The notes under the pieces were generated by a model. The model was not told where the DNA came from. It did no database searches and saw only the letters and a program-made list of their open reading frames with translations. A program made the position numbers and the translations under genes. From Candidatus Methylomirabilota bacterium (GTDB lineage Bacteria > Methylomirabilota > Methylomirabilia > Rokubacteriales > CSP1-6), in assembly GCA_035457825.1 (NCBI GenBank), contig DATIAY010000122.1, positions 9,147 through 73,146 on the forward strand: a DNA stretch of 64,000 bases, given 5' to 3'. Each line of letters opens with the position of its first letter. The first letter of the stretch is position 1. Shown piece after piece: positions 1 to 41,729 of this stretch.

Positions 1-359
1 AGGTTCGAGAGCGTGGTGGGACCTCCTTGTGCCCAGTGCCGGATGTGATGCCCCTGGCCGAAGCGGATCCCGCAGCCCGGGAAGCAGCAGCCGCGGTCTC
101 GGTGGTGCAGGGCCCGCCGTAACGCAGGAGGGATCGTGCCGGTCCGGGCCGCGACCTCCACGACACGGCCGTCGCGGCCGTGCTGCATCACCACGCGACT
201 GGCGTCGCAGGCCAGGCGCCGGGACGTTTCCGCCCGGTAGCGCTCGGCCGGGGCGCCGGGGTCGATGCCCCGGTGCAGGGCCGTCTCGGCGATCAGGACG
301 AGCGCGTCCGCCTGCTGCTGGGCCACTCGAGCACCCGCACTGCCGGATTCTCGAGATGC
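1..359 (-). pseudogene. HNH endonuclease (DUF222/13E12-repeat type) C-terminal fragment; runs off the window start, usual N-terminal domain absent
   Basis: The minus frame is open from 359 to 1 and reads ..AQQQADALVLIAETALHRG..LRRALHHRDRGCCFPGCGIRFGQGHHIRHWAQGGPTTLSNL, an HNH core (C-x-FPGC ... HH-x-x-HW-x-x-GG-x-T). The frame is closed upstream by TGA at 360-362. Confidence 0.6.
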
Positions 360-11544: not shown

Positions 11545-11546
11545 TC

Positions 11547-12053: not shown

Positions 12054-12054
12054 G

Positions 12055-13910: not shown

Positions 13911-16900
13911 TCAGGCGCTCCCTCGTGCGGTGTCGGGGCCGGCGAGGGCGCGCACCTGCCGGACCACCGGCGACCCTTCCAGGCTCGCGCGGAGCGCGGG
14001 ATCGCTCAGGCCGGCCAGGACCCTGTCGATCACGCTCCGCGCGGCGATGGCGGCAGAGCGGGCCGCATCGGGCCGCCCGCGCTCGAGCTCCAGCCGGGCC
14101 AGGGCCGCGTGGGTCCTCCAGAGCTGCGGCGGGTTGCCGATCTGCTCGGCGATGGCGAGGGCCTGGCGCAGCGCCTGCTCGGCATCGTCCCACCGCCTGC
14201 GGCTCCGCGCGATCTCGCCGCTCAGGCGCCAGCCCTTGACGAGATTCTTGCGGGCGCCGGTGCGGGCCGCCCGCTCGAGGCAATGCTCGGCCTGCTGGCG
14301 GGCTCGATCCAGATCGCCCCGGGCGAGCCACAGCTCGCCCTGGCTCGCCGCCAGGCGACTCAGGTAGCGGAAGCGCATCCACTCGCTGGTGGCCGGGTCG
14401 TTCGCGTAGCGCTCGATTCCCTCGAAGAGCTCGGCGGCCAGCGCGAGATCGCCCTTGGCCAGGAACACGTCTCCCAGGTTGATCTCGGCGTTGGGGATGG
14501 TGCCGTCGTCCTTGCGGCGGCGTCCGACCTCGGCGCTGCGCTGGTTGAGATCCTCGGCCGTGTCGAGGTCGCCGAGCTCCAGGTGGAGCCAGCCCAGGCA
14601 GTTGAGCAGGCGATGATGGATGGCCTCGTCGCCCAGCTTCTCGGCCAGCGCCAACCCCTCCCGGTACCCGACCTGCGCGGCGTCGTAGTCGCCCTTGCCG
14701 ATCTGCGCCAGGCCCCTCACGAACAGGCCGAACAGCAGTGGATAGAGGAGCCCGTGGCCGCGGGCGATGGCGACTCCCTCGGCGTGCAGGCGGTCCGCGG
14801 TGGAGAATTCGCCCTCCCAGTTCCAGGTGAGGCCTGCCGCGGAGAGCGCCAGCGAGTGATTCACGTGATCGCCGGCGCTGCGGCCGGTCACGATGGCGCG
14901 CTCGAGCTGGGCGCGGCCTTCCTGCCACGATCCGGTGACGGCCTGGATGAAACCCATCGTGAAGTGGCTGCGCGCCAGAGCCGACTCGGCTCGCACCGGC
15001 TCGCCCACCTCGATAGCTTGCCGGGCGTGGGCGACGGCGCCCTTGAGATCATGGCCCCACATGGCGGCCCAGGCGAGCGCCGCGAGCGCCGCGCTCTCCC
15101 GGACACGATCTCCCGCCTCGCGAGCCAGCGTCCGCAGACGCTCGGCCTCGGCCCGCGACCGCTCGAAGTCGCTGACCACGAAGTGCAGGTTGGACCTGGC
15201 GTCATGGATGGCCATGACGGCCGTGAGATCGACGCCGGCCGGCTGGCGCTGGGCAGCCTCCAGCGCTTCGTCGTAGAGGGTCAGCGCCTCGCGGGTGGCG
15301 AAGCTCTCGGCCGCCTGGCCCGCCGTGGCCAGCAGATATTCGAGGGCCTTGGGCCAGTCTTCGGCCCGCGAGAAGTGGTGGGCGAGCAGGCCGTAGTGCT
15401 CGGACAGGCGATCGGCGTTCAGGTCCTCGATCGTCGCGCCGATCCGCCGATGCAGGTCGCGACGCTCGGCTGCCGGCAGCGTGTCGTAGGCAACCTGATG
15501 AGTCAGGGCATGCTTGAACGCGTACATGGGCTCGGGGAAGAGCGTCTTCTCGTACACGAGCTCACCCGCCGTCAGCTCCCCTAGCGCCCGCTCAACGTGC
15601 TCGGGCGGCCCGCCCACGAGGTCGAGCAGGCGCCGGCCGAAGTCGCGACCGATGACCGAGGCCGCCTGCAGCGTGCTGCGGGCCGCCGGGTCGAGGCGGC
15701 CGATGCGGGCCAGGATCACGTCCTGGACGGTTTCGGGCACCACGACCTGGTCGAGCGCGCGGGCCAGCGTCACCCGGCCGCGCTCGCGGCGGAGGGAGCC
15801 GCCTTCGAGCAACGACCGCACCAGCTCCTCGACGAAGAACGGATTGCCCTCGGCCCGGCCGGCGATGAGCGACTCGAGTTCGGGCGGCAGCTCCTCGGCG
15901 CCGAGCACGTCGCGAGCGATCCGCGCGCTGTCGGCCGTGGAGAGCGCGGTGAGGGCCAGGCGCGTGGTGACCGTCCGATCGCCGAGCGGCAGCGTGTACC
16001 CAGGACGGCAGGTGAGGATCAGGAGCAGGCGCTTGCCGGCGGTCCGGTCGGCCAGCGCGGCGATCCACCGGGCCGTGGCCGGGTCCATCCAGTGGGCGTC
16101 CTCCAGGACGAGCACCTGGGGACGGCGCTCGGCCGCGCGCTCCAGCACGCGGTGGCAGGCGGTGACGACCTCGGCGTGACGGAGCTTGGCGTCCATGGCC
16201 GCCACACTGGGATCACCGGGATCTACCGAGAGGAGATAGCGCAGGAACGGCAGCGTGGGGCGCAGGTCCTCGCCCAGGCGCAAGATCCGGGGCTCGAGCT
16301 TCTCGATGACGACGGCCTCGGGGTCCGTCTCTTCGATCCGGTACGTCCGGCGCGTCATCTCGATCACGGGGTGGAAGGGGCGCGCACCCCCGAAAGGCAG
16401 GGCATGCCCGTCCGCCCACGTGCAGACGCCGGCCAGCCGCCGCCGGAGCTCGCTCAGCAGGCGGGACTTGCCGATGCCGGCCTCGCCGACGATCGTGATC
16501 ACCTGGCCCTGGCCGGCCCGGACCTGCTCGAATCGTTCGATGAGCAGCGCCAGCTCGCGGTCGCGCCCGACGAAGCCGGCGAGAGCGGGGTCAGCCTGGC
16601 CCGTGAGCCGGAACATGCTGTCGCTGGCCGGTAGCGGTATCAGGTCGAACGCGCGCGCCAGGAAACCCGCGGCTGCCCGGCTCACCACGATGCCACCAGC
16701 TTCGGCCCGCTCCAGCAGCGCCGCCAGCGCGGTCCAGCCCGAGGCGCGCCCGGCGGCGTCGATGGTGAGGGTGTCGACCGTCTGGACGACTGTGACCGGC
16801 TGGGTGTGGATGGCGATCTTCACGTCCGGGCGGTTCTCGTCTTCGCTCCTGGCCCGGCTGGCCAGAGCCCGGAGGGCCAGGGCGGCGTTGGCCGCGCGCC

Positions 16901-18164
16901 GAGGGGCATCCTCGGTCGGCTCCAGGCCGAAGGCGGCGACCATCTCGGTGATCGTGAGCTCCTGAGGACTCCCACCGAATGCCCGGACCTTTTCCACCAC
17001 CGCGTCGAGCGCCCGTGAGGCCTCGGACGTCGCCGCGTCGGCTCGAACCAGGACGAGGCGGACCTGCAACAGCGTGACCCGTGCCTCCCACTGCCGGGAG
17101 GTCGGGGCGGCGGCCGATGGAGCCGGCGCAAACGGGCGTGGCGTACGAGGGGGCCGGCCGCCCCGGCGGCGGGCCGGTGGTCCCTCGGCGTCCAGACCAT
17201 GACGTTCCAGACGGTAGCGCAGCGTGTTGCGAGGAAGCCCGAGCCGCTCGGCCGCCCGGGAGATGTTCCAGCCGGTGGCCGAGAGAGCGTCCAGGAGCTG
17301 GGCCCGCTCGTTCGCCTCGTCGAGCCCGCCAGCATCGGCCCGCGAGGCCGGGACCGCGGAACCGGCGGCGGGGGTCGAAGGCAGGCCCAGGTGGCCGGCC
17401 TCGAGCGTGCGCGCGTCGGCCAGGAGCGCGGCTCGCTCCATGACGTTCGCCAGCTCGCGGACATTGCCTGGCCACGCGTACTCCTGCAACGCGGTCCGCG
17501 CGCTCGGGGATAGCGTCTTCGGGGCCAGGCCGTAATCCTGGCAGGCCCGGGCCAGGAAGTGCTCGGCCAATTTCTCGACGTCGCCGCCGCGCTCGCGCAG
17601 CGGGGGCAGCTTCAGGGTGACGACGGCCAGGCGGTGGTAGAGATCCTCGCGGAAGCGGCGGGCTCGCACCGCGGCGGTCAGGTCCTCGCTGGTCGCTGCC
17701 ACCACCCAGACGTCGATCGGCTCGCTGCGCGTGCTTCCCAGCCGCCGCACGGAGCGCTCCTCGATCGCGCGCAGCAACTTGGATTGCAGGCCCACCGGCA
17801 ACAGCCCGACCTCGTCGAGGAAAAGGATGCCGCCGCTGGCCGTCTGGAAAAGCCCGGGCTTGGCCTGGCGCGCGTCGGTGAAGGCTCCCCGTTCGAAGCC
17901 GAACAGCTCGGCCTCGAGCAGGGTCTCGGGAATCGCCGCGCAGTTGACGTCGACGAACGGCCCGGCGGCACGGATACCGGTGCGGTGGATGGCCGCCGCG
18001 AGCAGGCCCTTGCCGGTGCCCGTTTCCCCGAGGATCAGGATCGGAGGTGGCCGCCGCATCGGGCCGCTGGGCGGGCGCAGCACCCGGACGACCTGATCAC
18101 GTAAGGTCGCCATGGCGGAGCTGTCACCGAGCAATTCGGCCAGCGCGGTCATGACGGGCGTCAT
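13911..18164 (-). CDS. Giant regulator: sigma-54 interaction AAA+ domain + Fis-type HTH + degenerate cyclase-homology domain + AAA_16/STAND P-loop NTPase + TPR array
   Basis: Walker A GETGTGKG, GAFTDA loop (17871-17888), Walker B ILFLDEVG and WPGNVRELANV. HTH is NISRAAERLGLPRNTLRYRLERHGL. Second P-loop is GEAGIGKS, followed by about 500 aa of TPR-like helices. ATG 18164 is preferred because the codons from 18266 to 18165 are AT3-rich and look non-coding; the track start is 18266. Confidence 0.8.
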   Translation of the reverse strand: MTPVMTALAELLGDSSAMATLRDQVVRVLRPPSGPMRRPPPILILGETGTGKGLLAAAIHRTGIRAAGPFVDVNCAAIPETLLEAELFGFERGAFTDARQAKPGLFQTASGGILFLDEVGLLPVGLQSKLLRAIEERSVRRLGSTRSEPIDVWVVAATSEDLTAAVRARRFREDLYHRLAVVTLKLPPLRERGGDVEKLAEHFLARACQDYGLAPKTLSPSARTALQEYAWPGNVRELANVMERAALLADARTLEAGHLGLPSTPAAGSAVPASRADAGGLDEANERAQLLDALSATGWNISRAAERLGLPRNTLRYRLERHGLDAEGPPARRRGGRPPRTPRPFAPAPSAAAPTSRQWEARVTLLQVRLVLVRADAATSEASRALDAVVEKVRAFGGSPQELTITEMVAAFGLEPTEDAPRRAANAALALRALASRARSEDENRPDVKIAIHTQPVTVVQTVDTLTIDAAGRASGWTALAALLERAEAGGIVVSRAAAGFLARAFDLIPLPASDSMFRLTGQADPALAGFVGRDRELALLIERFEQVRAGQGQVITIVGEAGIGKSRLLSELRRRLAGVCTWADGHALPFGGARPFHPVIEMTRRTYRIEETDPEAVVIEKLEPRILRLGEDLRPTLPFLRYLLSVDPGDPSVAAMDAKLRHAEVVTACHRVLERAAERRPQVLVLEDAHWMDPATARWIAALADRTAGKRLLLILTCRPGYTLPLGDRTVTTRLALTALSTADSARIARDVLGAEELPPELESLIAGRAEGNPFFVEELVRSLLEGGSLRRERGRVTLARALDQVVVPETVQDVILARIGRLDPAARSTLQAASVIGRDFGRRLLDLVGGPPEHVERALGELTAGELVYEKTLFPEPMYAFKHALTHQVAYDTLPAAERRDLHRRIGATIEDLNADRLSEHYGLLAHHFSRAEDWPKALEYLLATAGQAAESFATREALTLYDEALEAAQRQPAGVDLTAVMAIHDARSNLHFVVSDFERSRAEAERLRTLAREAGDRVRESAALAALAWAAMWGHDLKGAVAHARQAIEVGEPVRAESALARSHFTMGFIQAVTGSWQEGRAQLERAIVTGRSAGDHVNHSLALSAAGLTWNWEGEFSTADRLHAEGVAIARGHGLLYPLLFGLFVRGLAQIGKGDYDAAQVGYREGLALAEKLGDEAIHHRLLNCLGWLHLELGDLDTAEDLNQRSAEVGRRRKDDGTIPNAEINLGDVFLAKGDLALAAELFEGIERYANDPATSEWMRFRYLSRLAASQGELWLARGDLDRARQQAEHCLERAARTGARKNLVKGWRLSGEIARSRRRWDDAEQALRQALAIAEQIGNPPQLWRTHAALARLELERGRPDAARSAAIAARSVIDRVLAGLSDPALRASLEGSPVVRQVRALAGPDTARGSA

Positions 18165-18285
18165 CCTATCGCGAAGTCGCGGGCCACGCCGGGAAACTGA
18201 CGAAACCGCCGAATCGGCAGTTTGCTCGGGTTGCATGCCCGAGGCTGAACAGCTATAAATGCTCATCGTCTAAGGCAATCGGGTC

Positions 18286-18386: not shown

Positions 18387-19694
18387 ATGAAACGAGTCAG
18401 GATCGCGATGTGGATCACACTGGCCGGGCTGTTCGCCGCGCTGGCCCCAACTGGGGCCCGCGCCGACGAGCCGTGCCAGTCGCCCTACGTGCAGAAGATC
18501 ACGGGCGAGGAGGAGTTCGTCTACGTCTGGACGCTCGGGGTAGAGGGCATGGGAGACGGCTCCGACAAGCTCGTCACCGTGGATGTCCGCCGCAAGTCGC
18601 CCACCTACGGAAAGGTCATCCACAGTGTCTCCGTCGGCGGGCGCCATGAGGCCCATCACGGCGGGTTCACCGACGACCGGCGCTACTTCTGGACGGGTGG
18701 GCTCGACACCAGCAAGATCTTCATCTTCGACGTCGCCACCGATCCGGCCAAGCCCCGCCTGCACAAGACCATCGACGACTTCGTCAAGGCCTCCGGCGGC
18801 GTGGTGGGACCGCACACCTTCTATGCGCTGCCCGGGCGGATGTTGATTGCCGCCCTGTCCAACGACCGCGATCACGGTGGGCGGACGGGGATGGTCGAGT
18901 ACTCGAACGACGGCAAGTACCTGACGACGCACTGGATGCCGACGGCAACCACCAACGGCGCCAAGGTCGAGAAGGTGGCCGACGGCTACGGCTACGACGT
19001 CCGCGTCCTGCCCCGCAAGAACGTGATGCTGACCTCGTCCTTCACCGGATGGTCCAACTACATGATGGACTTCGGGCAGATGCTCAAGGACCCGGAGGCC
19101 ATGAAGCGGTTCGGCCAGACGGTGGTGGTGTGGGACTTCCATGCCCGCAAGCCCAAGAAGGTGCTGCACGTGCCGGGCTCGCCGCTGGAGATCCGTTTCG
19201 CCACCCAGCCCAACCACAACTACGCCTTCGTCACCACCGCGCTGACGTCGAAGATCTGGCTGGTCTATGAAGACGACAAGGGCGAGTGGCAGGCCAAGCC
19301 CGTCGCCGACATCGGCGACCCCGCCAAGGTCCCGCTGCCCGTGGCCATCACGTTCAGCGTCGACGACAAGACGCTATGGGTCGACTCCTTCATGGACGGC
19401 ACCGTGCGCACCTACGATGTGACGGATCCCCACAAGCCGCGGGAGATCTATTCCAAGCGGATCGGCTCGCAGGTCAACATGGTGTCACAGAGCTGGGACG
19501 GCAAGCGGCTGTACTTCACCAGCTCCGTGCTGGCGCGCTGGGACAAGAAAGGCGCCGACAACGAGCAGTTCTTCAAGGCTTACACCTGGGACGGCAAGGC
19601 CCTGGAGGAGCGCTTCGCCCTCGACTTCACGAAGCTCGGGTTGGGCCGGGCCCACATCATGCGCTTCGGCAGCGCCAGCCTCTACACGAAGTGA
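18387..19694 (+). CDS. mtoX: SBP56-family protein (selenium-binding protein 56 / methanethiol oxidase MtoX-like), periplasmic
   Basis: Signal peptide. TVDVRRKSPTYGKVIH, PLEIRF and WDGKRLYFTSSVLARWDK parallel human SELENBP1 (TVDVDPKSPQYCQVIH, PLEIRF, DGKRLYITTSLYSAWDK). Confidence 0.8.
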   Translation: MKRVRIAMWITLAGLFAALAPTGARADEPCQSPYVQKITGEEEFVYVWTLGVEGMGDGSDKLVTVDVRRKSPTYGKVIHSVSVGGRHEAHHGGFTDDRRYFWTGGLDTSKIFIFDVATDPAKPRLHKTIDDFVKASGGVVGPHTFYALPGRMLIAALSNDRDHGGRTGMVEYSNDGKYLTTHWMPTATTNGAKVEKVADGYGYDVRVLPRKNVMLTSSFTGWSNYMMDFGQMLKDPEAMKRFGQTVVVWDFHARKPKKVLHVPGSPLEIRFATQPNHNYAFVTTALTSKIWLVYEDDKGEWQAKPVADIGDPAKVPLPVAITFSVDDKTLWVDSFMDGTVRTYDVTDPHKPREIYSKRIGSQVNMVSQSWDGKRLYFTSSVLARWDKKGADNEQFFKAYTWDGKALEERFALDFTKLGLGRAHIMRFGSASLYTK

Positions 19695-19704
19695 TGGGGA
19701 AAGA

Positions 19705-20403
19705 ATGATGCGGATTGCCACGCGCGCGGCCCTGGCGCTCCTCGTGGCCGGCCTGCTGGCGCCGGCTGCGTCGGCGCACGGGCCGCGCGGCTCGTCCAAC
19801 TCCACCGGCGCCGATCTGGGATATCCGCGCTTCGACTACCAGCCTCCGGCGCCCGGGACCTACGCGCTGCCGGCCGTCAAGGCGGCCGCCGACGGGCAGG
19901 TGGTGGACGCCACCAGCACCCGGCGCCGCCTGCACGACTTGATGGGCGACCGCATCGTCGTGCTGAGCTTCATCTCGACCCGCTGCAGCGACGCCCAGGG
20001 TTGTCCGCTGGCCACCGCCGTCCTGCACCAGCTCCGGGCCGCCGCGGCCAGCGACCCGGCGCTGGCGCGCCGGCTCCGCCTCGTGACGCTGAGTTTCGAT
20101 CTCGCTCACGACACGCCCACCGTCCTGGCCCGCTTCGTCCCGCCGGCTCGTAACGGGCGGGCGAGTCCCTGGACGGCCGTGGTGCCGACGTCGGAGGGGG
20201 AGCTCTCGTCGATCCTGGCCGCCTATGGCCAGCCGGTCGGGCCTCGGGTCGTGGAGGCGCCGCCCACCCATCTGCTCCGCGTCTACCTGATCGACCGCCA
20301 GCGCGAGATTCGCAACGTGTACGGCCTCGACTTCCTGGACCCCCGCCTGCTGCTCAACGACGTGCGCACGCTGATCCTCGAGGAGCAGGGCCGGCGGCCA
20401 TGA
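19705..20403 (+). CDS. SCO1/SenC-family copper chaperone-like thioredoxin-fold protein
   Basis: Signal peptide, with VVLSFISTRCSDAQGCPLATAVL (a cysteine pair in the SCO position) in a thioredoxin-fold context. Confidence 0.7.
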   Translation: MMRIATRAALALLVAGLLAPAASAHGPRGSSNSTGADLGYPRFDYQPPAPGTYALPAVKAAADGQVVDATSTRRRLHDLMGDRIVVLSFISTRCSDAQGCPLATAVLHQLRAAAASDPALARRLRLVTLSFDLAHDTPTVLARFVPPARNGRASPWTAVVPTSEGELSSILAAYGQPVGPRVVEAPPTHLLRVYLIDRQREIRNVYGLDFLDPRLLLNDVRTLILEEQGRRP

Positions 20404-21605
20404 CCACCGGGCGGCGGGTGATGACAGGGGTGCTGGGGGCGCTGGCTCTGGCCGTGGTGGCTCTGGCCACCGACGCCAGCGAGCAGGCGGGCGACAGCGG
20501 GGCTGACCGGCGGGTGGCCGCGGCCCTCGCCCGCATCGCCACGCCGCCCCTGGGACTGCCACCGGTTCCCGTGCCCGCCGACAACCCGCCGACACCGGCC
20601 AAGGTGGCGCTCGGCCGCAAGCTCTTCTTCGACCGTCGCCTGTCCCACAACGGCACGATGTCGTGCGCGATGTGCCACATCCCCGAGCAGGGCTTCACGA
20701 ACAACGAGCTGGCCCGTCCGGTCGGCATCGAGGGCCGCAGCCTGCGCCGCAACGCGCCGACCCTGCTCAACGTGGCCTACGTCGAGCGGCTCTTCCACGA
20801 CGGGCGGGAGATCGCGCTGGAGACCCAGGTCATCGGTCCCCTGGTCGAGCGCAGCGAGATGGGCAATCCCTCGATCGGCCACGTCATCGCCCGCATCCGC
20901 TCGCTGCCCGACTACGCCGGCCTCTTCGAGCGCGCGTTCGGCGCCAGCCCGAGCCCCGACCGCATCGGCCAGGCCATCGCCAGCTACGAGCGCACGCTGC
21001 TCTCGGGCCGCTCGTCCTTCGACCACTGGTACTACGGCGGTGAGCCCTCCGCGGTCGGGCCCCGGGCGGTGGAGGGGTTCCGCCTGTTCACCGGCAAGGC
21101 CGGCTGCGTGTCCTGTCACACGATCGGGGCCCGTCACGCGCTTTTCAGCGACGGCGCCTTCCACGACACGGGCATCGGCTACTACAACGCCGTCGTCCGC
21201 CCGCGCCAGCGCACGCCGGTGCCGGTGGAGCTGGCCCCCGGGGTCATCGCCCAGCTCCCGCCGGAGGCCGTGGAGAGCGTGGGCGACCCGGAGGCCGCCG
21301 ATCTCGGACGGCACGAGGTGACTCTGGTTCCCGCCGACCTGTGGAAATTTCGGACGCCGACCCTGCGCAACGTGGCCCTGACCGCGCCGTACATGCACGA
21401 CGGCTCGCTGCGCACGCTCCCGGACGTGGTGCGGTTTTACAATCGGGGCGGACAGCCTCACCCGGGCCTCGATCCCCGGCTCCGTCCGCTCGGGCTCACC
21501 GAGACCGAGATGGCCGCGCTGGTGGAGTTTCTCGAAGCCCTCACCGGGACGGATGTGGCGCGCCTCATCGAAGAGGCCTGGACACCGGGGCCGCCGGGAA
21601 ACTGA
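20400..21605 (+). CDS. Di-haem cytochrome c peroxidase / MauG family protein
   Basis: Two CxxCH motifs (CAMCHIPEQGF, CVSCHTIG) and PTLRNVALTAPYMHDGSL. 4-nt overlap with the SCO1-like gene. Confidence 0.85.
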   Translation: MTTGRRVMTGVLGALALAVVALATDASEQAGDSGADRRVAAALARIATPPLGLPPVPVPADNPPTPAKVALGRKLFFDRRLSHNGTMSCAMCHIPEQGFTNNELARPVGIEGRSLRRNAPTLLNVAYVERLFHDGREIALETQVIGPLVERSEMGNPSIGHVIARIRSLPDYAGLFERAFGASPSPDRIGQAIASYERTLLSGRSSFDHWYYGGEPSAVGPRAVEGFRLFTGKAGCVSCHTIGARHALFSDGAFHDTGIGYYNAVVRPRQRTPVPVELAPGVIAQLPPEAVESVGDPEAADLGRHEVTLVPADLWKFRTPTLRNVALTAPYMHDGSLRTLPDVVRFYNRGGQPHPGLDPRLRPLGLTETEMAALVEFLEALTGTDVARLIEEAWTPGPPGN

Positions 21606-23942: not shown

Positions 23943-24509
23943 TCACTCCTTCCCGATCGCGCGCGCGGCCTCCAGAATGGGCTCGGTCGGGAACACGTCG
24001 GCGACCGTGCCGAGCCAACGGCCACGGATGATGCCGGCCTTGTCGACGAGGAAGAAGGCGCGCTGAGCGGTCGTGCTCGACCACTGCGTGTAGAGGCCGG
24101 CGTAGCTCTTGATCGTCTTGAGATGCGGAAAGTCGCTCAGCAGGGGATAGGGCAGCTTGAGCGAATCGCTGAACGTCTTCTGCGAGAACGGATTATTGGA
24201 GCTGATGCCCAGGATCTGGATGTTCAGCGCCTCGAACTTTCCGTAGTCGGCCTTCCTGGCCGACAGGTTCGCCGCTCACACGGGGGAGAAGTCGGCGCCG
24301 TAGAACTCCAGGAGGACGATCTGCTTGCCGCGGAACTGGCTCAGGCTGATGTTGCCTCCCGTCGTCGCCGGCAGCGTGAAGTCGGGCGCCCGGTCGCCGA
24401 CCTTGGGCTCTGCGGCCGCCGGCCGGAGCCCGATCACGCCCCCCACGGCGAGGAGGACGGCGCTCACCATCACGATGATCGTCCCCATCCGGGTCAGCCC
24501 TGCACTCAT
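23943..24509 (-). CDS. Exported peroxiredoxin (AhpC/TSA-BCP type), 188 aa, with in-frame TGA (24276-24278) at the peroxidatic Cys position; candidate selenoprotein (U78)
   Basis: Read-through of track ORF 24276..24509 gives ..GDRAPDFTLPATTGGNISLSQFRGKQIVLLEFYGADFSPV-U-AANLSARKADYGKFEALNIQILGISSNNPFSQKTFSDSLKLPYPLLSDFP..RAFFLVDKAGIIRGRW..GKE*. The frame has no further stop until 23943. GGAGGA RBS and an N-terminal signal/anchor are present. Confidence 0.8.
24246..24264 (-). promoter_or_regulatory. Candidate bacterial SECIS hairpin for the peroxiredoxin UGA
   Basis: mRNA GUCGGCC-AGGAA-GGCCGAC forms a perfect 7-bp stem starting 11 nt after the UGA. The apical loop begins 18 nt after the UGA and contains GG. 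Confidence 0.55.
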
Positions 24510-24605: not shown

Positions 24606-26096
24606 TCACCGCGTGGACTGCGTCGGTGCTCGGCGCAGGATCGGCCAGACGAGCGCGGCGAAGGTGAGCAGGAGAAAGCCGGCGGCGATCGGCTGGCGCA
24701 GGAAGACCGTGGGGTCGCCACCGCTCAGGGTGAGGGCCAGGCGGAACTGCTCTTCCAGATCGCCCCCCAGGACGAGGCCGATGATCATGGGCACCACCGG
24801 GAAGCCATACCGGTTCAGCAGGTAGCCGACGGCGCCGAAGCCGAGCATGACGGCGCTGTCGAAGAGGGTGTTGCGGAGACCGTACGCGCCGACGACGCAG
24901 AGGACGGCAATGGCCGGCAGGAGCGCGCTCGTGGGCAGCCGGAGCACCTGGACGATGAAGCGTACCGACAGCAGCGCCACCACCAGGGTCATGACGTTGG
25001 CCAGGAGCAGCGCCCAGAAGACCCCGTAGACGAAATCCGGATGCTCCTTGAAGAGCAGCGGCCCGGGAGCCAGCCCCTGGACGATCAGGACCCCGAGCAG
25101 GATCGCGGAGATGGGGTCGCCGGGGATCCCCAGCGTGAGCATGGGGATGAGCGCGCCGCCGGTGACGCCATTGTTGGCGGCCTCGGGAGCGGCGACGCCC
25201 TCGGCGCTGCCCCGGCCGAAGGCCTGGGGCGCGCGGGACACGCGGCGAGCGAGGTCGTAGGCCAGGAACACGGCGATGGGACCGCCGGTGCCGGGGATAG
25301 CGCCGACGCCGGTGCCCACGGCGGAGCCGATCACCATGCTTCGGTTCAGCGCCCCGAGCTCACGCCACGAGGGCAGCAGGCTCGTGAGACCGACGGTGAA
25401 CCTGGGAATGACAGCACCAGCGCCCCCTCGCAGGCCCTCGATGACCTGGGGGATGGCAAAGAGCCCGATGAGCGCAGGAATGAAATGCAGGCCCGCCTGC
25501 AGCTCGACTCGCCCGAACGTGAAGCGAGGCGTGCCCACCATGGGGTCCTGGCCGACGGTGGTGAGGAGCAGGCCGAGGACCCCGGCGATCAGCCCCTTGA
25601 CGAGCGAGCTTCCGGCGAAGGCGGCGATCAGCGTGAGTCCCAGCGTCAGCAGCGCGAACTGCTCGGCCGCCCCGAACTGCAGCGCCACGCGCGCGATCAG
25701 CGGGGCCGAGAGCACGAGGCAGACCAGGCTGAAGATGCCGCCATAGACGGAGGAGATGACCGACACGCCGAGCGCCTTGCCGGCCTCGCCACGGCGGGCC
25801 ATACGGTAGCCGTCGATGGCCGTGGCCGACGCCGAAGGCGTGCCCGGGATGTTGATGAGGATCGCCGAGTAGGAGCCGCCGGTCATGCCGGCGGCGAAGA
25901 GCCCGAGCATGAGGGACATCGCGACGACCGGGGGCAGCCCGAAGGTCAACGGTAGGACCAGCACCATCCCCAGCGAGATCGTGAGGCCGGGGAGCGCGCC
26001 CACGACGAGCCCGAGCAGGACTCCGACGAAGCTCGCCAGCAGGCTCGGCCAGGAGAGCGCCTGGCCCAGGGCCTGCCAGATTGCGGCGTCCGTCAT
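24606..26096 (-). CDS. tctA: Tripartite tricarboxylate transporter large permease TctA (second copy)
   Basis: 496-aa polytopic protein with GALPGLTISLGMV.. and GIPGDPISAILLG. Confidence 0.85.
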   Translation of the reverse strand: MTDAAIWQALGQALSWPSLLASFVGVLLGLVVGALPGLTISLGMVLVLPLTFGLPPVVAMSLMLGLFAAGMTGGSYSAILINIPGTPSASATAIDGYRMARRGEAGKALGVSVISSVYGGIFSLVCLVLSAPLIARVALQFGAAEQFALLTLGLTLIAAFAGSSLVKGLIAGVLGLLLTTVGQDPMVGTPRFTFGRVELQAGLHFIPALIGLFAIPQVIEGLRGGAGAVIPRFTVGLTSLLPSWRELGALNRSMVIGSAVGTGVGAIPGTGGPIAVFLAYDLARRVSRAPQAFGRGSAEGVAAPEAANNGVTGGALIPMLTLGIPGDPISAILLGVLIVQGLAPGPLLFKEHPDFVYGVFWALLLANVMTLVVALLSVRFIVQVLRLPTSALLPAIAVLCVVGAYGLRNTLFDSAVMLGFGAVGYLLNRYGFPVVPMIIGLVLGGDLEEQFRLALTLSGGDPTVFLRQPIAAGFLLLTFAALVWPILRRAPTQSTR

Positions 26097-26109
26097 CGGC
26101 GATGGCGCG

Positions 26110-26550
26110 TCAGAGCCAGGGGCTCCGCGGCAGCGGAACCGCGAACAGCACGGTCAGCACGAGCCAGACCCCGAACGTGAGACCGACGGCGGCGCCGAGA
26201 ATGAACAGCGGCGATCGCGCCCCGCACAGCCACGTCGTGATGCCGACGAAGGGAAGGGTCGCCAGGAAGTAGCCCAGATGGGCCAGGGCCGCGACGTAGA
26301 GGCTGAGCAGCGCCAGCACTCCAGCCGCCTGGGCCCAGCCGGGCGACTGGGCGTGCGCGAAGTCGTCACCGGCGGGCTTGCTCTGGATCAAGAGGGCCAG
26401 GGCCAGCAGTGCGAGGAGCCCGCAAAGCAGGAGGGGCACGAACGCCGACCCCGGCCCCTCGGGAGCGAGCACCGGCAGCCCGCGCGCCAGCCAGGCCCAC
26501 GTCCCGGCCACGGCCAGCACGGCGAGCGCGGCACCGACGCGGGCCGACAC
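26110..26550 (-). CDS. tctB: TctB small membrane subunit (second copy)
   Basis: 146 aa with four helices, positioned between tctC and tctA. Confidence 0.7.
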   Translation of the reverse strand: MSARVGAALAVLAVAGTWAWLARGLPVLAPEGPGSAFVPLLLCGLLALLALALLIQSKPAGDDFAHAQSPGWAQAAGVLALLSLYVAALAHLGYFLATLPFVGITTWLCGARSPLFILGAAVGLTFGVWLVLTVLFAVPLPRSPWL

Positions 26551-26557
26551 GCGGGAC

Positions 26558-27517
26558 CTACTTCTTGAGCCCGGCCTTCTTCACGAGGTCAGCGATGAGC
26601 GCGTTCTGCTCCTCGAGGTACTTCCGGAACGCCGCCGGGCCCTGGACCGCTACGATGTAGCCGCCGTTGGCGCCGGCCTGCTTGAAGGCCTCGTCCTGAG
26701 CGGCTTTCTGGAAGGCCTCGGCGAGCTTGTCGACGACCGCGGCGGGAGTGCCCTTGGGCACGCTGAAGCCGCGGAACAGCTCCATGGCCACCGGCACGCC
26801 GGCCTGGCGGAGCGTGGGCACGCCCGGGAACGCCGGGTCCGCGGCCTCGCTGGGCACGGCGAGGATGCGTACCTCCCCCGCGCGCACGTGGGCGGCGATC
26901 TCCGGCGTGGGCACGCTGATCATCTCCACTTCTCCGCGCAACAAGCTCGGGATGCGCTTGCCGGAGCCGAGCGGCGCGTGGATCACCTTTATGCCGGTCG
27001 CCTCTGTCAGCGCCAGCGCGGCGAAGTGCGTGCCGCTGCCGTGGCCGGCGTTGCCGATGCGGACCTTGCCCGGGTTGGCGCGGGCGTGGGCCAGGAAGTC
27101 CGGGAACGTCTTCCAGGCGGCATCCGCGCGGACCGCCAGCGGCATGGCCTGCGTCGATACACGCGCGACGTGGTCGAGCGCATCCCAGGGGAAATCGAGG
27201 GTGCCGAGGTTCGCGGTGGTGAGCAGCGAGGTGGAGTTCCAGGCCACGGTGTAGCCGTCGGGCGGCGCCGTCTTCACGTGCGTGTAGGCCAGGGCGCCGC
27301 CGGCGCCGGGCTTGTTGATGGGGACGACGGGCACCCCGAGGAGCTTTTCGGCGGCCTTGGCGATGATGCGTCCCTCGATGTCGGCGGAGCCGCCGGCGCC
27401 GAACGGGATGATCAGCTCGATCGGCTTGGCCGGGAAGGTCTGGCCCCAGCCGGCGGGCGCCGAGGCCAGGAGCACGGCGAGCGCGACGGTCGGTCGTATC
27501 ATCGCTGTCCCTCTCAC
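26558..27517 (-). CDS. tctC: Bug/TctC substrate-binding protein (second copy)
   Basis: Signal peptide plus FPAKPIELIIPFGAGGSADIEGR. 4-nt overlap with the upstream ADH gene. Confidence 0.85.
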   Translation of the reverse strand: MRGTAMIRPTVALAVLLASAPAGWGQTFPAKPIELIIPFGAGGSADIEGRIIAKAAEKLLGVPVVPINKPGAGGALAYTHVKTAPPDGYTVAWNSTSLLTTANLGTLDFPWDALDHVARVSTQAMPLAVRADAAWKTFPDFLAHARANPGKVRIGNAGHGSGTHFAALALTEATGIKVIHAPLGSGKRIPSLLRGEVEMISVPTPEIAAHVRAGEVRILAVPSEAADPAFPGVPTLRQAGVPVAMELFRGFSVPKGTPAAVVDKLAEAFQKAAQDEAFKQAGANGGYIVAVQGPAAFRKYLEEQNALIADLVKKAGLKK

Positions 27518-28581
27518 GGGTGGAAGATGACCTTGATGGGATCGCCGATTCGCTTCTCGACGACCTCGAAGCCCCGGTGCACTTCGGTCAGCGGGAAGGT
27601 CTGGCTCACCAGCGGCTTGGCCCGCACGCGACCAGCCGCCAGCAGGGCCAGGGCCCGGCCCACGCTCGTCCCGCCCTCGCCTCGCTCGGTGTAGATCGTC
27701 AGGTTGCGACGCACGGCGTCGGCCACGTCGGCGGTGACGGGGCCGTGGTAGAACCCCACCAGGATGACGCGGCCGCCCGGCTTGGTCATCTTGATCGACT
27801 GGTCGAAGGTGTCGTCACCGCCGGCGCAGTCGATCGTCACGTCGGCGCCGCGGCCCCCGGTGGCCTCCCGCACTGCAGTCACCGGATCCTGCTCGCGGCT
27901 GTTCACGATGACGTCGGCGCCCAGCTCTTTGCCCAGGGCCAGGCGCCCCGGTCGCGTGCCGGTGAGGATCACGCGCACGGCGCCGAGCGCCTTGACGAGC
28001 TGCAGGGCCATCAGCCCGATCGGCCCCGGTCCCAGCACCGCCACCGTCTCGCCGGCGAAGTAGCCGCCGGCCCGCTCCAGCCCGTACAGGGGGCTGCCCG
28101 CGGTCATGACCACGACGGCCTCCTCGAAGGAGACGCTGTCGGGGACGCGGAACAGCGTGTTGACGTGGTTCAACGCATACTCGGCCAGCCCGCCGTTGGT
28201 GGTAAACCCGTTGGCCCGGTGCCCACGCTTCATGTTGCCGAAGTTCAGGCAGGCCGTGTACAGCCCGCGGATGCAGTTCTCGCACCGCCGGCAGCCCATA
28301 TGCGCCTCGACGACCACCCGGTCGCCGACCCGAAACTCGTCCACCGTGCTGCCCACCGCCACCACGTCGCCCGCGTACTCGTGGCCGAAGATGAACTGGC
28401 CGTACGGGGGCATGTGAGGCAGCCCCTGGTGGACGATTTTCAGGTCCGTCCCTCAGACGCCGCAGGCGCGCACGCGAACCAGCACGTCCTCCGGCCCCGG
28501 CTGGGGAACCGGCCGCTCCTGCAGTTCGAAGCGGTGGGGCGCCATCAACACGGTCGCCCGCATGGTCGTGGGAGCGCTCAT
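27514..28581 (-). CDS. Zn-dependent alcohol dehydrogenase (MDR superfamily), 355 aa, with in-frame TGA (28453-28455) at the catalytic-zinc Cys ligand; candidate selenoprotein (U43)
   Basis: Track ORFs 28453..28725 and 27514..28413 are in the same frame, separated by one TGA plus 13 sense codons. The joined sequence reads MSAPTTMRATVL..EDVLVRVRACGV-U-GTDLKIVHQGLPHMPPYGQFIFGHEYAGDVV... It has the structural-Zn motif GCRRCENCIRGLYTAC and the NAD motif VLGPGPIG. A GGAGGA RBS precedes ATG 28581. Confidence 0.8.
28407..28426 (-). promoter_or_regulatory. Candidate SECIS hairpin for the ADH UGA (alternative hairpin at 28431-28451)
   Basis: mRNA GGGGC-UGCCUCACAU-GCCCC has its loop starting 31 nt after the UGA. 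The alternative GGACGG-ACCUGAAAA-UCGUCC starts 2 nt after the UGA. Neither could be scored here. Confidence 0.35.
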
Positions 28582-28660
28582 TCCTTCCTCCATTCCACTG
28601 CGCGCCGTTGGCGGCAGCGGGCCAAGCGTAGCACGAGCCCCTCGTGGTATAACACCCGCC

Positions 28661-29752
28661 ATGCCATCAAACCTCGAAGACCGATTTCTCACGCTGCATG
28701 AAATCGTGCGGGCCGCCCGGGTCAACCTCGCCCCCGGGCCCTGGGACTACCTCGCGGGGGGCGCGGAGACGGAGACCACGCTGCGCCGCAACCGCCAGGC
28801 CCTGGATGCGGTCGCCTTCCGGCCGCGCGTCCTGCGCGACGTCTCCAAGATCGATTGCACCTCGTCGCTGCTGGGCCGGGCCATCCGCCTGCCGGTCATG
28901 CTGGCGCCGGTGGGGTCGATCGAGACCTTCGCTCCTGGCGGGGGAGCCACCGCGGCCCAGGCCGCCGCCGAGTTCGGGATCCCCCAGATGCTCTCCTCGG
29001 TGTGCAACCCGGGCCTGGAGGCCACGGCGAAGGCCGCCCCCGACGCTTTCCGCATCTTCCAGCTCTACGTCCGCGGTGACGACGCCTGGGTGGACGACTT
29101 CGTCAAGCGCGCCCGCGACCATGGTTACGTGGCCTTCTGCCTCACCGTGGATACCGCCGTCTACAGCCGGCGCGAGCGGGACCTGGCCCGGCGGTTCGTC
29201 AAGCCGTGGCGCGTGCGGGCCGGCGGCTTCGAATACCAGGCCGGGCTCAACTGGGATCACGTCAAGCGCTTCAAGGACGTCCACCCCGACATTCCGCTGG
29301 CCCTCAAGGGCATCGCCACCGCTGAGGACGCCACGCTGGCCGTCGAGCACGGGGTCGAGATCGTCTACGTCTCCAATCACGGCGGCCGCCAGCTCGACCA
29401 CGGTCGCGGCACGCTCGACGTGCTCCCCGAGGTGCTAACCGCCGTCGACGGCCGCGCCACCGTCATCATGGACGGCGGCATCATGCGCGGCACCGACGTG
29501 GTCAAGGCCATCGCCACGGGCGCGCACGCCGTGGCCATCGGCCGTCTGGAATGCTGTGGTCTCGCCGCCGCCGGCCAGGCCGGGCTCGTGCGCGTGCTCG
29601 AGTTGCTGGAGGAAGAGGTGCGGGTCGCCCTGGGGCTCATGGGCGTGAGCCGCCTGTCCCAGCTCGATCGCTCCTACCTGCGCCCGGCGACGCCGGTAGG
29701 CCCGCCGCACGTGACGAGCGCCTTCCCGCTCCTGGACGAGGAAGGCTACTGA
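28661..29752 (+). CDS. FMN-dependent alpha-hydroxy-acid dehydrogenase/oxidase (L-lactate dehydrogenase / glycolate oxidase family), 363 aa
   Basis: Contains ..GAETETTLRRNRQALD..FRPRVL.., VSNHGGRQLD and the TIM-barrel FMN family pattern. ATG 28661 is internal to track ORF 28562..29752. Confidence 0.85.
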   Translation: MPSNLEDRFLTLHEIVRAARVNLAPGPWDYLAGGAETETTLRRNRQALDAVAFRPRVLRDVSKIDCTSSLLGRAIRLPVMLAPVGSIETFAPGGGATAAQAAAEFGIPQMLSSVCNPGLEATAKAAPDAFRIFQLYVRGDDAWVDDFVKRARDHGYVAFCLTVDTAVYSRRERDLARRFVKPWRVRAGGFEYQAGLNWDHVKRFKDVHPDIPLALKGIATAEDATLAVEHGVEIVYVSNHGGRQLDHGRGTLDVLPEVLTAVDGRATVIMDGGIMRGTDVVKAIATGAHAVAIGRLECCGLAAAGQAGLVRVLELLEEEVRVALGLMGVSRLSQLDRSYLRPATPVGPPHVTSAFPLLDEEGY

Positions 29753-36960: not shown

Positions 36961-36983
36961 AGTACAACCTCGCCCCGGGATTG

Positions 36984-37012
36984 TTGACAACCCCACCACG
37001 CTGGCCTAGAGT
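36984..37012 (+). promoter_or_regulatory. Sigma-70-type promoter for coxMSL
   Basis: TTGACA-N17-TAGAGT, 56 nt upstream of the coxM ATG. Confidence 0.6.
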
Positions 37013-37067
37013 CCGGCCGCTGGTCGTGGTGGTTAACCCGTCGTGTTCTCCCGGAAGGGGACCCCCA

Positions 37068-37943
37068 ATGATCCCTGCTGCCTTCGAGTACCACACGCCG
37101 CGCTCGGTCCCAGAGGCTACCGAACTGCTCGGCAGGCTCGGCGAGGAGGCCAAGGTGCTCTCGGGCGGCCAGAGCCTGATCCCGCTCATGAAGCTTCGTC
37201 TCGCGCGCCCGCGACACGTGGTCGACATCAACGGGATTCCCGGCCTGGCCTACGTCCGGGAAAGCGAGGGACATCTCCGGATCGGCGCGCTCACGCGCGA
37301 GTCGGATCTCGAGGCCTCGGAGCTCGTCAGGACCCGGTACCCCCTGCTCCATGACACCTGCGCGGTCATCGCCGATCCGCTCGTCCGCAACCTCGCCACC
37401 ATCGGGGGCAACCTTGCCCACGCCGACCCTGCCAACGACCATCCCGCCGCCATGCTCGCGTATGGAGCGGAGGTCACGGCGGTGGGCCGGCGCGGGGAGC
37501 GCCGGATCCCCGTGAGCTCGTTCTTCACCGGGCCCTTTGCCACCGCGCTGGCCGCCGACGAGCTCCTCACCGAGATCCGGATCCCCGTGTCGTCCCCGCG
37601 AAGCGGCGGGGCCTATCTGAAGCTGGAGCGCAAGGTGGGGGATTTCGCCACGGCGGCCGTCGCGGTCCAGCTCACCCTGGACGCCAGCGGCGCGTGTGAG
37701 CGGGTGGGTATCGGGCTCACCAGCGTGGGCCTGACCGCCCTCAAGGCCGAGCGGGCCGAGCAGCTCCTCCGGGGCAAGCGTCTCGAGGAGGCGTCCATCA
37801 CGCAGGCGGCGCAGCTCGCGGCCGAGCAGTCCCAGCCCAGCGCCGACCTGCGCGGCTCCGTCGAGTACAAGCGTGACCTGGTCAGAGTCCTGACGACCCG
37901 CGCGCTCCGCAAGGCCGCCGAGCGGGCTCATTCAAGGAGGTGA
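37068..37943 (+). CDS. coxM: Aerobic CO dehydrogenase medium (FAD-binding) subunit
   Basis: [37 protein letters not shown] shows the CoxM/FAD_binding_5 pattern. ATG 37068 is internal to track ORF 36981..37943. Confidence 0.85.
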
Positions 37944-37948
37944 GTGGG

Positions 37949-38425
37949 ATGCTGGTGCGGCTCGTCATCAACGGGGAAAAGCACGAGGCCGACGTCGAGC
38001 CCCGACTCCTGCTCGTCCACCTGATCCGAGAGGTCTTCCGGCTCACCGGCACCCACATCGGGTGCGACACGACCCACTGCGGTGCCTGCACCGTGCTGCT
38101 CGACGGGCGCCCGGTGAAATCGTGCACCCTCTTCGGCGTGCAGGCTCACGGCCGGGAGATCATGACCGTGGAGGGCCTGGAGCAGGACGGCAAGCTCCAT
38201 CCGCTCCAGGAAGGCTTCGTGGAGAAGCACGGGTTGCAATGCGGCTACTGCACGCCGGGCATGCTCATGACGTCCTACGCCTTCCTGCGCGAGCGGCCCC
38301 GGCCGGGCGAGGACGAGATCCGCCGGGCCATCTCGGGCAACCTCTGCCGGTGCACCGGCTACGTGAACATCGTCAAGGCCATCCAGCACGCGGCGGAACG
38401 AATCAAAGGCGCACCAGCAGCGTGA
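37949..38425 (+). CDS. coxS: Aerobic CO dehydrogenase small ([2Fe-2S]) subunit
   Basis: Contains [12 protein letters not shown] and [23 protein letters not shown] lies 8 nt before ATG 37949; the track start is GTG 37940. Confidence 0.85.
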
Positions 38426-38454
38426 TCGGGCCCGTGCCCTGAAGGAGATACGTG

Positions 38455-40818
<2,364 letters not shown>

Positions 40819-40820
40819 GG

Positions 40821-41729
40821 ATGGAGCCGGATCTCCTCGCCCTCGCCGCCGAGCTGGGGCGGCGCGGCGAACCGTTCGCGCTGGCCACGGTGGTCCGTTG
40901 CGAGCGGCCAACCGCGGTGAAGCCGGGGGCCAAGGCCGTCGTCCACGCGGACGGCACCCTGTCGGGCTGGATCGGCGGGGCCTGCGCCGAGCCCACCGTG
41001 GTGCGGGAGGCGCTGGCGGCGCTCCGCGACGGCCAGCCGCGTCTCATTAGCCTGGTGGGCGAGGGGAGCCGGAGCCCGGGCCGGACGGAAGGTGTGGTGC
41101 AGTACCCGATGACGTGCCACAGCGGTGGCACGCTGGAGATCTACGTGGAGCCGTTCCTGCCCAGGCCCGCCCTGCTGCTGCTCGGCCACGGCCCGGTGCT
41201 GGACACGCTGGCCGCGCTCGGGCGAGCGACACGATTCGATGTCACGGTCGTGGATGTCGCGGCGCTGGGCCAGTCAGCATCGCTCGCGTTGACGGCGAAC
41301 ACCTTCGTGGTGGTGGCGACTCACGGCACGGCCGACGAAGAGGCCCTGGCCCAGGCGCTCGCCAGCGACGCGGTCTACGTCAGCCTCGTGGCCAGCCGCC
41401 GGCGCGCCGCCGCGGTGCTCGAGCGGCTGAAGCACCGCGGCCTCGCCCCGGAGCGGCTGGGCGCGCTGAAGGCCCCGGCCGGACTGGACATCGGCGCCCT
41501 CGGCCCCGAGGAGATCGCCATCAGCATCATGGCGGAGATCGTGCAGGTTCAGCGCAGCGCCAAGGTGGTGGCTGCCACCGAACCGGCCACGCCGCGCGAG
41601 GCGATCGACCCCATCTGCGGAATGTCGGTCGACGTCGCCAGCGCGCGCTACCGCTCGGTGACGCCGATAGGCGTCGTCTACTTCTGCTGTGCGTCCTGCC
41701 AGGCGCAGTACGACCGTAAGAACGCTTGA
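40821..41729 (+). CDS. XdhC/CoxI-family maturation factor fused to a C-terminal YHS/TRASH metal-binding domain
   Basis: XdhC N-terminal and Rossmann parts (..FALATVV...G.KAVV..DG...G.IGG.C.E). The C-terminal DPICGMSVDVASARY...VVYFCCASCQAQYD matches the YHS pattern DPVCGM-V...YYFCS--C. Confidence 0.75.
   Translation: MEPDLLALAAELGRRGEPFALATVVRCERPTAVKPGAKAVVHADGTLSGWIGGACAEPTVVREALAALRDGQPRLISLVGEGSRSPGRTEGVVQYPMTCHSGGTLEIYVEPFLPRPALLLLGHGPVLDTLAALGRATRFDVTVVDVAALGQSASLALTANTFVVVATHGTADEEALAQALASDAVYVSLVASRRRAAAVLERLKHRGLAPERLGALKAPAGLDIGALGPEEIAISIMAEIVQVQRSAKVVAATEPATPREAIDPICGMSVDVASARYRSVTPIGVVYFCCASCQAQYDRKNA

Follow-up and report, generated by a model that had tools for sequence, protein, structure and literature searches.

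How does a gene stay intact when a TGA codon stands at the position of its catalytic-zinc cysteine? The question is raised by a zinc-dependent dehydrogenase gene of the medium-chain dehydrogenase/reductase (MDR) superfamily, found on contig DATIAY010000122.1 of a Candidatus Methylomirabilota bacterium (assembly GCA_035457825.1), of which a stretch of 64,000 nucleotides with a G+C content of 70% (the window) was analysed. Judged from the comparison of this gene with its orthologues, the UGA at codon 43 is very probably decoded as selenocysteine (Sec).

Gene Structure and In-Frame TGA Codon

The dehydrogenase gene occupies positions 27514..28581 of the minus strand and comprises 355 codons, from an ATG at 28581-28579 to its own stop, TGA, at 27516-27514. 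Its translation contains one internal stop, at codon 43, in the context ...VLVRVRACGV*GTDLKIVHQGLPHMPPYGQFIFGHEYAGD... This TGA (28453..28455, minus strand), the predicted selenocysteine codon, was placed by the orthologue column and by the alignment with threonine dehydrogenase (TDH) of Pyrococcus horikoshii at the GxCGxD cysteine that ligates the catalytic zinc. Two open reading frames (ORFs) listed on the minus strand, 28453..28725 and 27514..28413, share one frame, and 13 sense codons lie between the TGA and the ATG chosen by gene callers. The first-pass annotation of this DNA had joined the two ORFs, separated by the TGA and 13 codons, into a 355-residue MDR zinc alcohol dehydrogenase (Zn-ADH) with the TGA in place of the GxCGxD cysteine, a structural-zinc CxxCxxCx7C motif, and GPGPIG. 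The ORF listing and the translation bear this out, the Pfam matches cover both domains (ADH_N and ADH_zinc_N), codon 43 aligns with the Cys of ICGTD in P. horikoshii TDH, and both motifs are present in the translation. A Shine-Dalgarno-like sequence, GGAGGAAGGA (28582..28591, minus strand), was recognised by reading the sequence, with GGAGGA 5-10 nt 5' of the ATG at 28581; its position directly 5' of this ATG supports initiation at codon 1 and not at the internal Met57. The N-terminal Met is kept in orthologues.

Orthologue Comparison

DNA loci were taken from species-representative genomes (26 loci) and metagenomes (80 loci), and about 100 orthologues, 75-97% identical, were scored at the aligned codon. 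Regular-expression extraction yielded 56 TGA, 34 TGC, and 5 TGT loci; with five further loci (TGA in L086 and L095; Cys in L068, L091, and L096), the totals reached 58 TGA and about 42 TGC/TGT. Neither TAA nor TAG was found at codon 43 among these approximately 100 orthologues. The presence of TGA at one codon in 58 orthologues is far beyond chance. In species-representative genomes of Rokubacteria/Methylomirabilota, TGA was observed in 11 of 20 and Cys in 9 of 20, and the homologues of Chloroflexota and Acetothermia, about 50% identical, all have Cys. At 97%, L001, a soil metagenome-assembled genome (MAG) of Candidatus Methylomirabilota, is the nearest relative.

The set of unique full-length genes comprised 77 sequences of 355 codons each, 47 TGA-type and 30 Cys-type. 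Each of the 47 TGA-type genes has exactly one internal stop, at nucleotide identities down to 74% and a synonymous divergence (pS) of 0.38. Additional lesions were seen in only two of the approximately 58 TGA-type loci: a frameshift upstream of the TGA site in L095 (~808-1758) and one near the 3' end in L020 (165-1230), the latter binned as Miltoncostaeaceae. These may represent assembly errors, mis-binning, or real decay.

In the protein search, roughly three in four of the top 120 database matches were 299-309 aa long, with their N-terminus just past the TGA site, and the full-length 355-aa entries read ACG[VI]CGTD. Among the best 150 matches from 1.84 billion representative proteins, no other, more distant MDR subfamily was truncated at this site; since truncation was met only inside this orthologue group in those 150 matches, the Sec form appears confined to Rokubacteria/Methylomirabilota. 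In public gene calls, the TGA-type gene appears as two ORFs of 42 and 299 aa (L107, 9833-9961 and 10001-10900), and alternative starts give products of 302 or 309 aa, which carry names such as 'zinc-binding dehydrogenase' and 'L-iditol 2-dehydrogenase' (P0011, P0015, P0019, and P0083). The family is thus systematically mis-annotated across soil metagenomes, where its NCBI and JGI records are truncated proteins.

Selection, Phylogeny, and Synonymous Signature

Nei-Gojobori estimates of the ratio of nonsynonymous to synonymous substitution (dN/dS) in TGA-types were 0.21 for codons 1-42 and 0.17 for codons 44-355; the Cys-types gave 0.26 upstream and 0.15 downstream. The value of 0.21 before the TGA indicates that codons 1-42 are kept as translated protein in the TGA lineages. 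The aligned codon in orthologues had been named by the first-pass annotation as a check of its claim; the column of TGA and Cys codons, the intact frame, and purifying selection before and after the TGA are all in agreement with it. In a neighbour-joining tree calculated without the site region, TGA- and Cys-types were interleaved, with at least nine Fitch changes between the two states, and the Sec- and Cys-type proteins are 80-90% identical.

Codon counts revealed a signature at synonymous sites that is specific to TGA-types and extends from +4 to +18 (GGG ACG GAC CUG AAA; 28438..28452, minus strand; positions are counted from the U of UGA as +1). Cys-types at the same stretch read UGC GGC ACC GAU CU(C/G) AAG. 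An A at +18 is found in 40/47 TGA-types versus 0/30 Cys-types, a G at +15 in 46/47 versus 15/30, the codon ACG in 37/47 versus 5/30, and GAC in 37/47 versus 7/30. Across nine phylogenetically independent Sec/Cys sister pairs, position +18 differed in seven, and +15 and +12 in five each. AAA is a non-preferred codon at 70% G+C, so the signature reflects mRNA-level selection tied to UGA decoding. A hairpin GAUC-UCAA-GAUC at +10..+21 is fully paired in 22/30 Cys-types and in 1/47 TGA-types; it is removed by the synonymous choices of the TGA-types. In Cys-types, this hairpin (two GATC sites; e.g., L008, L009, L014, and L052) employs the non-preferred codon GAU, and Cys-types likewise seem to be under mRNA-level or DNA-level constraint at +10..+21.

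Zinc Sites, Cofactor, and Protein Family

With Cys put at codon 43, the Pfam search returned ADH_N (PF08240, E 6e-28) and ADH_zinc_N (PF00107, E 1e-31). The top NCBIfam matches were IolM (NF041097, 214 bits with a cut-off of 450) and Tdh (TIGR00692, 203 bits with a cut-off of 458); as these scores are far under both equivalog cut-offs, the protein is related to Tdh and IolM and a member of neither. These profile matches place the enzyme in the MDR superfamily, on the polyol/threonine-dehydrogenase branch. The nearest solved structures were P. horikoshii TDH (2dfv/2d8a, E 2e-49), followed by an alcohol dehydrogenase (4cpd), ketose reductase (1e3j), Thermus thermophilus TDH (2dq4), and human sorbitol dehydrogenase (1pl6), with an identity of about one third as judged by eye from the alignment.

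Codon 43 was aligned with Cys42 of P. horikoshii TDH, the Cys of ICGTDLH, which is the catalytic-zinc ligand in this family, with the remaining ligands given by GHE (His67 and Glu68). The GHE motif (His67-Glu68; 28378..28383, minus strand) is aligned with His67/Glu68 of P. horikoshii TDH and is invariant in 77/77 genes of both types, and Glu134 (28180-28182, minus strand) is E in 75/77 orthologues. The structural-zinc lobe GCRRCENCIRGLYTAC (Cys97-x2-Cys100-x2-Cys103-x7-Cys111; 28249..28293, minus strand) has all four Cys invariant in 77/77. Since the catalytic and structural zinc residues are kept in both types, the metal sites are retained, and Sec43, by homology, most likely takes the place of the thiolate as ligand of the catalytic zinc. 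C40, three residues before codon 43 (CxxU), is invariant in TGA-types and Cys-types alike.

The dinucleotide-binding motif GPGPIG (residues 184-189; 28015..28032, minus strand) is followed by a strand that ends in LTGTR without an acidic residue; no variation was seen at G184/G186/G189, T207/G208, or R210, and position 209 holds T in 76/77. This strand end hints at a preference for NADP(H).

Neighbouring Peroxiredoxin

A second gene with a Cys-to-TGA change, about 4 kb away, had been reported in the first-pass annotation and was recovered here as a secreted AhpC/TSA peroxiredoxin (Prx; 23943-24509, minus strand), 4.2 kb from the dehydrogenase, with TGA 24276-24278 at the peroxidatic Cys position (FSPV-U, translated as FSPV*). 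It carries a canonical selenocysteine insertion sequence (SECIS; 24246-24264, minus strand) with a 7-bp stem 11 nt past the UGA, the loop AGGAA, and an energy of -12.8 kcal/mol. The Prx orthologue in L001, 96% identical, keeps the TGA; among database entries, close Prx relatives consist of C-terminal fragments of 107 aa, and Cys is found in more distant Prx proteins. Experimental verification of Prx as a selenoprotein family is recorded in PMC13188914 (Table 1). For the phylum, PMC13188914 gives, after Deng et al. 2026, 63 predicted selenoprotein genes in one Methylomirabilota MAG, and Sec-type hydrogenases of Methylomirabilota are described in PMC13582414. The Sec trait of this genome rests on the neighbouring Prx gene together with this phylum literature. 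About 9 kb from the two TGA genes, a homologue of the 56-kDa selenium-binding protein/methanethiol oxidase (PF05694, E 3e-52; 18387-19694, plus strand) was annotated, adjoined by a di-haem cytochrome c peroxidase (CCP_MauG; 20400-21605, plus strand).

Candidate SECIS Elements in the Dehydrogenase Gene

The consensus of bacterial SECIS (bSECIS) elements has a loop of 3-9 nt, an upper stem of at least 4 bp, a G in the first two loop positions, a spacing of 16-37 nt, and an energy not above -7.5 kcal/mol (PMC13188914, Fig. 2). This consensus was coded as a scanner and run on the orthologues. The best SECIS candidate was hairpin 2 at +30 to +49 (28407..28426, minus strand), GGGGC-UGCCUCACAU-GCCCC, with -9.1 kcal/mol and a z value of -1.8. 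Counting both of its two registers, 45/47 TGA-types and 24/30 of the Cys-types have a hairpin at +30..+49. The form with the loop from +36, (C)GGCAU-GCCNNNG-AUGCC(G), has a 7-nt loop GCCNNNG, a stem of 5-6 bp, and a spacing of 32 nt, and its loop, stem, G, and spacing fell within the consensus in 37/47 TGA-types. The bare hairpin has an energy of -7.8 kcal/mol in its 6-bp form (29 sequences) and -5.4 in its 5-bp form (8 sequences); within +12..+75, values of -7.0 to -8.5 kcal/mol were obtained for four sampled sequences. With respect to the limit of -7.5, the 6-bp form clearly passes, and the 5-bp form is borderline on the bare hairpin. The clade of the window copy has Leu54 (CUG), and codons 53, 54, and 58 change together from GGC-AUG...CCG to GGG-CUG...CCC, a coordination by which the stem is preserved in a shifted register.

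Hairpin 1 (+5 to +25; 28431..28451, minus strand; -5.2 kcal/mol, z -1.2) was fully paired in 1/47 TGA-types, namely the window copy only. A ribosome on the UGA covers about 11 nt downstream (PMC4513850). Hairpin 1 was rejected as a SECIS because it is not conserved and lies inside this ribosome-occluded stretch, too near the UGA for SelB. Both hairpins had been picked out in the first-pass annotation as following the TGA. Both do fold, and neither is unusual at 70% G+C; 28407-28426 stands as the better SECIS candidate, although it occurs in Cys-types too, and 28431-28451 was discarded.

Base-pair probabilities and minimum free energy (MFE) structures indicated mutually exclusive folds: -7..+1 with 41..49, hairpin 2, 37-44 with 64-71, and 47-50 with 55-58. 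Pairing of -7..+1 with +41..+49 was found in 29/47 TGA-types versus 6/30 Cys-types, that of +14..17 with +61..64 in 46/47 versus 15/30, and that of +37..44 with +64..71 in 22/47 versus 4/30. Composite models of a lower stem plus hairpin 2 were 6-15 kcal/mol worse than the MFE and were not retained. In the window (28407-28464, minus strand), the 9-bp stem of -7..+1 with +41..+49 embeds the UGA and excludes hairpin 2, in which +41..+49 pairs with +30..+35. Speculatively, an advancing ribosome could switch the mRNA from the UGA-embedding stem to a SECIS-like fold.

Proposed Mechanism and Alternative Explanations

In the proposed mechanism, SelB-GTP-Sec-tRNASec would be recruited to UGA43 by a stem-loop within the coding sequence, for which +30 to +49 is the best candidate. 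This hairpin is in large part set by the conserved peptide G-M/L-P-x-M-P, so that it occurs in Cys-type genes as well, and a single third-position change between C and A could thus toggle Cys and Sec; synonymous changes at +9, +12, +15, and +18 might then tune the spacer, for example through loss of the GAUC hairpin. The predicted product would be a full-length NAD(P)-dependent zinc dehydrogenase of 355 residues with Sec43 as a catalytic-zinc ligand and with His67, Glu68, and the nearby Glu134 unchanged. The selenolate ligand may alter the Lewis acidity of the zinc and/or guard the site from irreversible oxidation; resistance to irreversible oxidation is the advantage generally credited to Sec over Cys (PMC13188914). 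Taken as a whole, it is likely that Rokubacteria/Methylomirabilota make an active zinc dehydrogenase with its catalytic zinc on a selenolate (Sec43-His67-Glu68), which would make this enzyme the first MDR selenoprotein and give it a Zn-Se active site without natural precedent, with a SECIS-competent hairpin hard-wired by the peptide and at least nine single-base Cys/Sec toggles.

Several results weigh against this reading. The hairpin with the loop at +36 also fits the loop, stem, G, and spacing values in 23/30 Cys-types, where the conserved peptide G-M-P-x-M-P imposes it. The window copy and its clade fall outside the strict model, having either a 10-nt loop with UG or a 5-nt loop without G. 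The base of the candidate hairpin lies about 27 nt past the UGA versus 11 nt in the neighbouring Prx gene. Neither hairpin exceeds shuffled sequence in stability (z -1.2 and -1.8; -0.3 for the whole 60 nt). Rfam, run on the whole window at gathering thresholds and on the two UGA regions at permissive E-values, detected no SECIS or any other family of relevance; it missed the textbook SECIS of Prx too and is therefore uninformative here. RNAalifold gave no convincing consensus for either the Sec-type or the Cys-type alignment. Genes for SelA, SelB, SelD, and tRNA-Sec (selA, selB, selD, and the tRNA gene) were not found in the 64-kb window or in 746 kb of related loci (107 loci): ARAGORN predicted no tRNA for the window and a single one, tRNA-Asp, across all loci, and tblastn with approximate Escherichia coli SelA, SelB, and SelD sequences against the window and the 746 kb gave a single SelD-like match, in the unrelated Georgenia locus L026. 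Finally, no natural Zn-Sec catalytic site was found in the literature searched or in the catalogue of 119 families considered below.

The conserved TGA, the intact frame, and a SECIS-like hairpin would be explained equally well if the UGA were recoded as cysteine by a tRNACys of the tRNA-ReC (SelC*) type with a UCA anticodon, delivered by SelB, in which case the product would be an ordinary Cys-type Zn-ADH. According to PMC13582414, tRNA-ReC reads UGA plus SECIS as Cys and occurs in about 13-17% of the genomes analysed; yet the same study reports such tRNAs for Armatimonadota, Desulfobacterota, and JAPLJL01 with UXXU-type hydrogenases, always beside a canonical tRNASec, and the passages considered list no figures by phylum for Methylomirabilota. 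The phylum of the window is reported as selenoprotein-rich in PMC13188914, the Prx next to the dehydrogenase is from a family whose Sec has been verified by experiment, and with cysteine recoding it is hard to see why TGA should have been fixed repeatedly (at least nine switches), so this explanation is regarded as improbable. About as improbable is an insertion of Sec without zinc ligation, with the catalytic metal lost or with Sec43 acting as a redox-active or nucleophilic residue in a different chemistry. Such a role would fit most known bacterial selenoproteins, in which Sec is redox-active (PMC13188914), and the invariant C40 creates a CxxU resembling the redox CxxU motifs of many selenoproteins; C40 is, however, just as invariant in Cys-types, His67, Glu68, and Glu134 are invariant or nearly so in Sec-types, and the two types, 80-90% identical, interleaved, and placed in the same operon, point to the same function and metal site.

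A true stop, with the gene being a pseudogene, yielding a 299-aa product from the internal Met57, or carrying an assembly or sequencing error, would agree with automatic annotation, which gives a 299-309-aa 'zinc-binding dehydrogenase' and a separate 42-aa ORF, as well as with the single substitution that separates TGA from TGC/TGT and with the missing Sec machinery in the window and related loci. The same TGA nevertheless occurs in 58 independent assemblies, and 47/47 genes are free of any other stop or frameshift; codons 1-42 have a dN/dS of 0.21 and a good ribosome-binding site 5' of them; a product of 299 aa would be missing the zinc ligand as well as the first strands of the catalytic domain; and the TGA-types have their own conserved synonymous signature. 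The conserved TGA, the intact frame, and selection before the TGA together effectively rule out a pseudogene, an internal-start product, and a sequencing error, and a true stop is considered the least probable of these explanations, with a very slight chance of being correct. A reassigned genetic code (TGA as Trp or Gly) was rejected, as TGA ends most genes of the window and ends this gene in 72/77 orthologues.

Genomic Context and Predicted Substrate

Directly 3' of the dehydrogenase gene, and forming an operon with it, lies a tripartite tricarboxylate-type transporter, tctC-tctB-tctA (24606..27517, minus strand), whose genes were assigned by the Pfam families TctC (tctC, 26558-27517, minus strand), TctB (tctB, 26110-26550, minus strand), and TctA (tctA, 24606-26096, minus strand). 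The order ADH-TctC-(TctB)-TctA is kept beside both Sec-type and Cys-type orthologues. The operon with TctCBA points to an imported alcohol or ketone bearing a carboxylate, and the predicted substrate is probably an imported hydroxy- or keto-carboxylate or a polyol, which would be oxidised or reduced.

A divergent gene for a dehydrogenase of alpha-hydroxy acids dependent on flavin mononucleotide (FMN) was found at 28562..29752 on the plus strand (Pfam FMN_dh, E 1e-102); such a gene stands beside the ADH gene only in L001, L003, and L027, the closest relatives. Its longest ORF, with a start at 28562, would share 20 nt with the 5' end of the ADH gene on the opposite strand (28562-28581). The FMN_dh match begins at residue 52, so the true start is probably further downstream.

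Elsewhere in the window, a further TctC/TctA transporter set beside two AMP-binding ligases and a 2-oxoacid:ferredoxin oxidoreductase, a molybdenum hydroxylase operon of the CoxM/CoxS/CoxL type with XdhC, a HepT-like toxin gene, and a sigma-54 activator of 1451 aa fused to AAA_16 and TPR domains were annotated (jointly 10570-13599, plus strand; 36981-41729, plus strand; 41761-42192, minus strand; and 13911-18266, minus strand).

Novelty and Comparison with Known Systems

No MDR or zinc alcohol dehydrogenase is present among the 119 prokaryotic selenoprotein families and subfamilies of the May 2026 catalogue (PMC13188914, Table 1). A Zn-ADH selenoprotein is likewise unmentioned in deep-Sep, BSepDB, and the review of 2022, a comparison that did not extend to the supplements of Haft & Tolstoy 2025 and Deng et al. 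2026; NCBIfam r20 holds no selenoprotein model that matches the dehydrogenase, and a full-text literature search for selenocysteine together with zinc-dependent alcohol dehydrogenase or catalytic zinc returned nothing relevant. The statement of the first-pass annotation that Zn-ADH is outside the known selenoprotein families agrees with the catalogue, with NCBIfam r20, and with the full-text search. A new selenoprotein family is supported as a high-confidence computational prediction. To our knowledge, nearly all known selenoproteins have a redox-active Sec, and the few metal-ligating cases involve Mo/W or Ni. If the prediction is true, Sec bound to zinc, a Lewis acid, in a dehydrogenase that transfers hydride would widen the biological chemistry of selenium, and dozens of natural orthologue pairs, 80-90% identical and differing at one ligand, would become available for the question of why Sec is used instead of Cys. 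The toggling between Sec and Cys may track the availability of selenium in soil.

The window gene shares the two-domain architecture ADH_N + ADH_zinc_N with P. horikoshii TDH (2dfv/2d8a), sorbitol dehydrogenase (1pl6), ketose reductase (1e3j), and IolM, and it has in common with these MDR enzymes the positions of the Cys-His-Glu zinc triad, the four-Cys structural lobe, and GxGxxG; unlike them, it has a TGA for the zinc-ligand Cys and is linked to the TctCBA transporter. The Sec-peroxiredoxin (Prx, TxxU) resembles the dehydrogenase in the change from an active-site Cys to Sec, in the in-frame UGA, and in its location in the same genome region. Prx works, however, in thiol/selenol redox chemistry and has a textbook SECIS inside its coding region, whereas the candidate SECIS of the dehydrogenase is weaker and lies about 27 nt past the UGA. 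In group 4 hydrogenases, as reported in PMC13582414, Cys-types also have SECIS-like hairpins, and the two types are split by synonymous third-position changes, as observed here. FdhA (Mo/W-Se) and the [NiFeSe] hydrogenases (Ni-Se) have Sec in place of a metal-ligand Cys, and their Sec- and Cys-types coexist in related organisms, as they do for the dehydrogenase. Unlike in these enzymes, the metal ligated by the predicted Sec43 would be zinc, a redox-inert Lewis acid serving NAD(P)-dependent hydride transfer.

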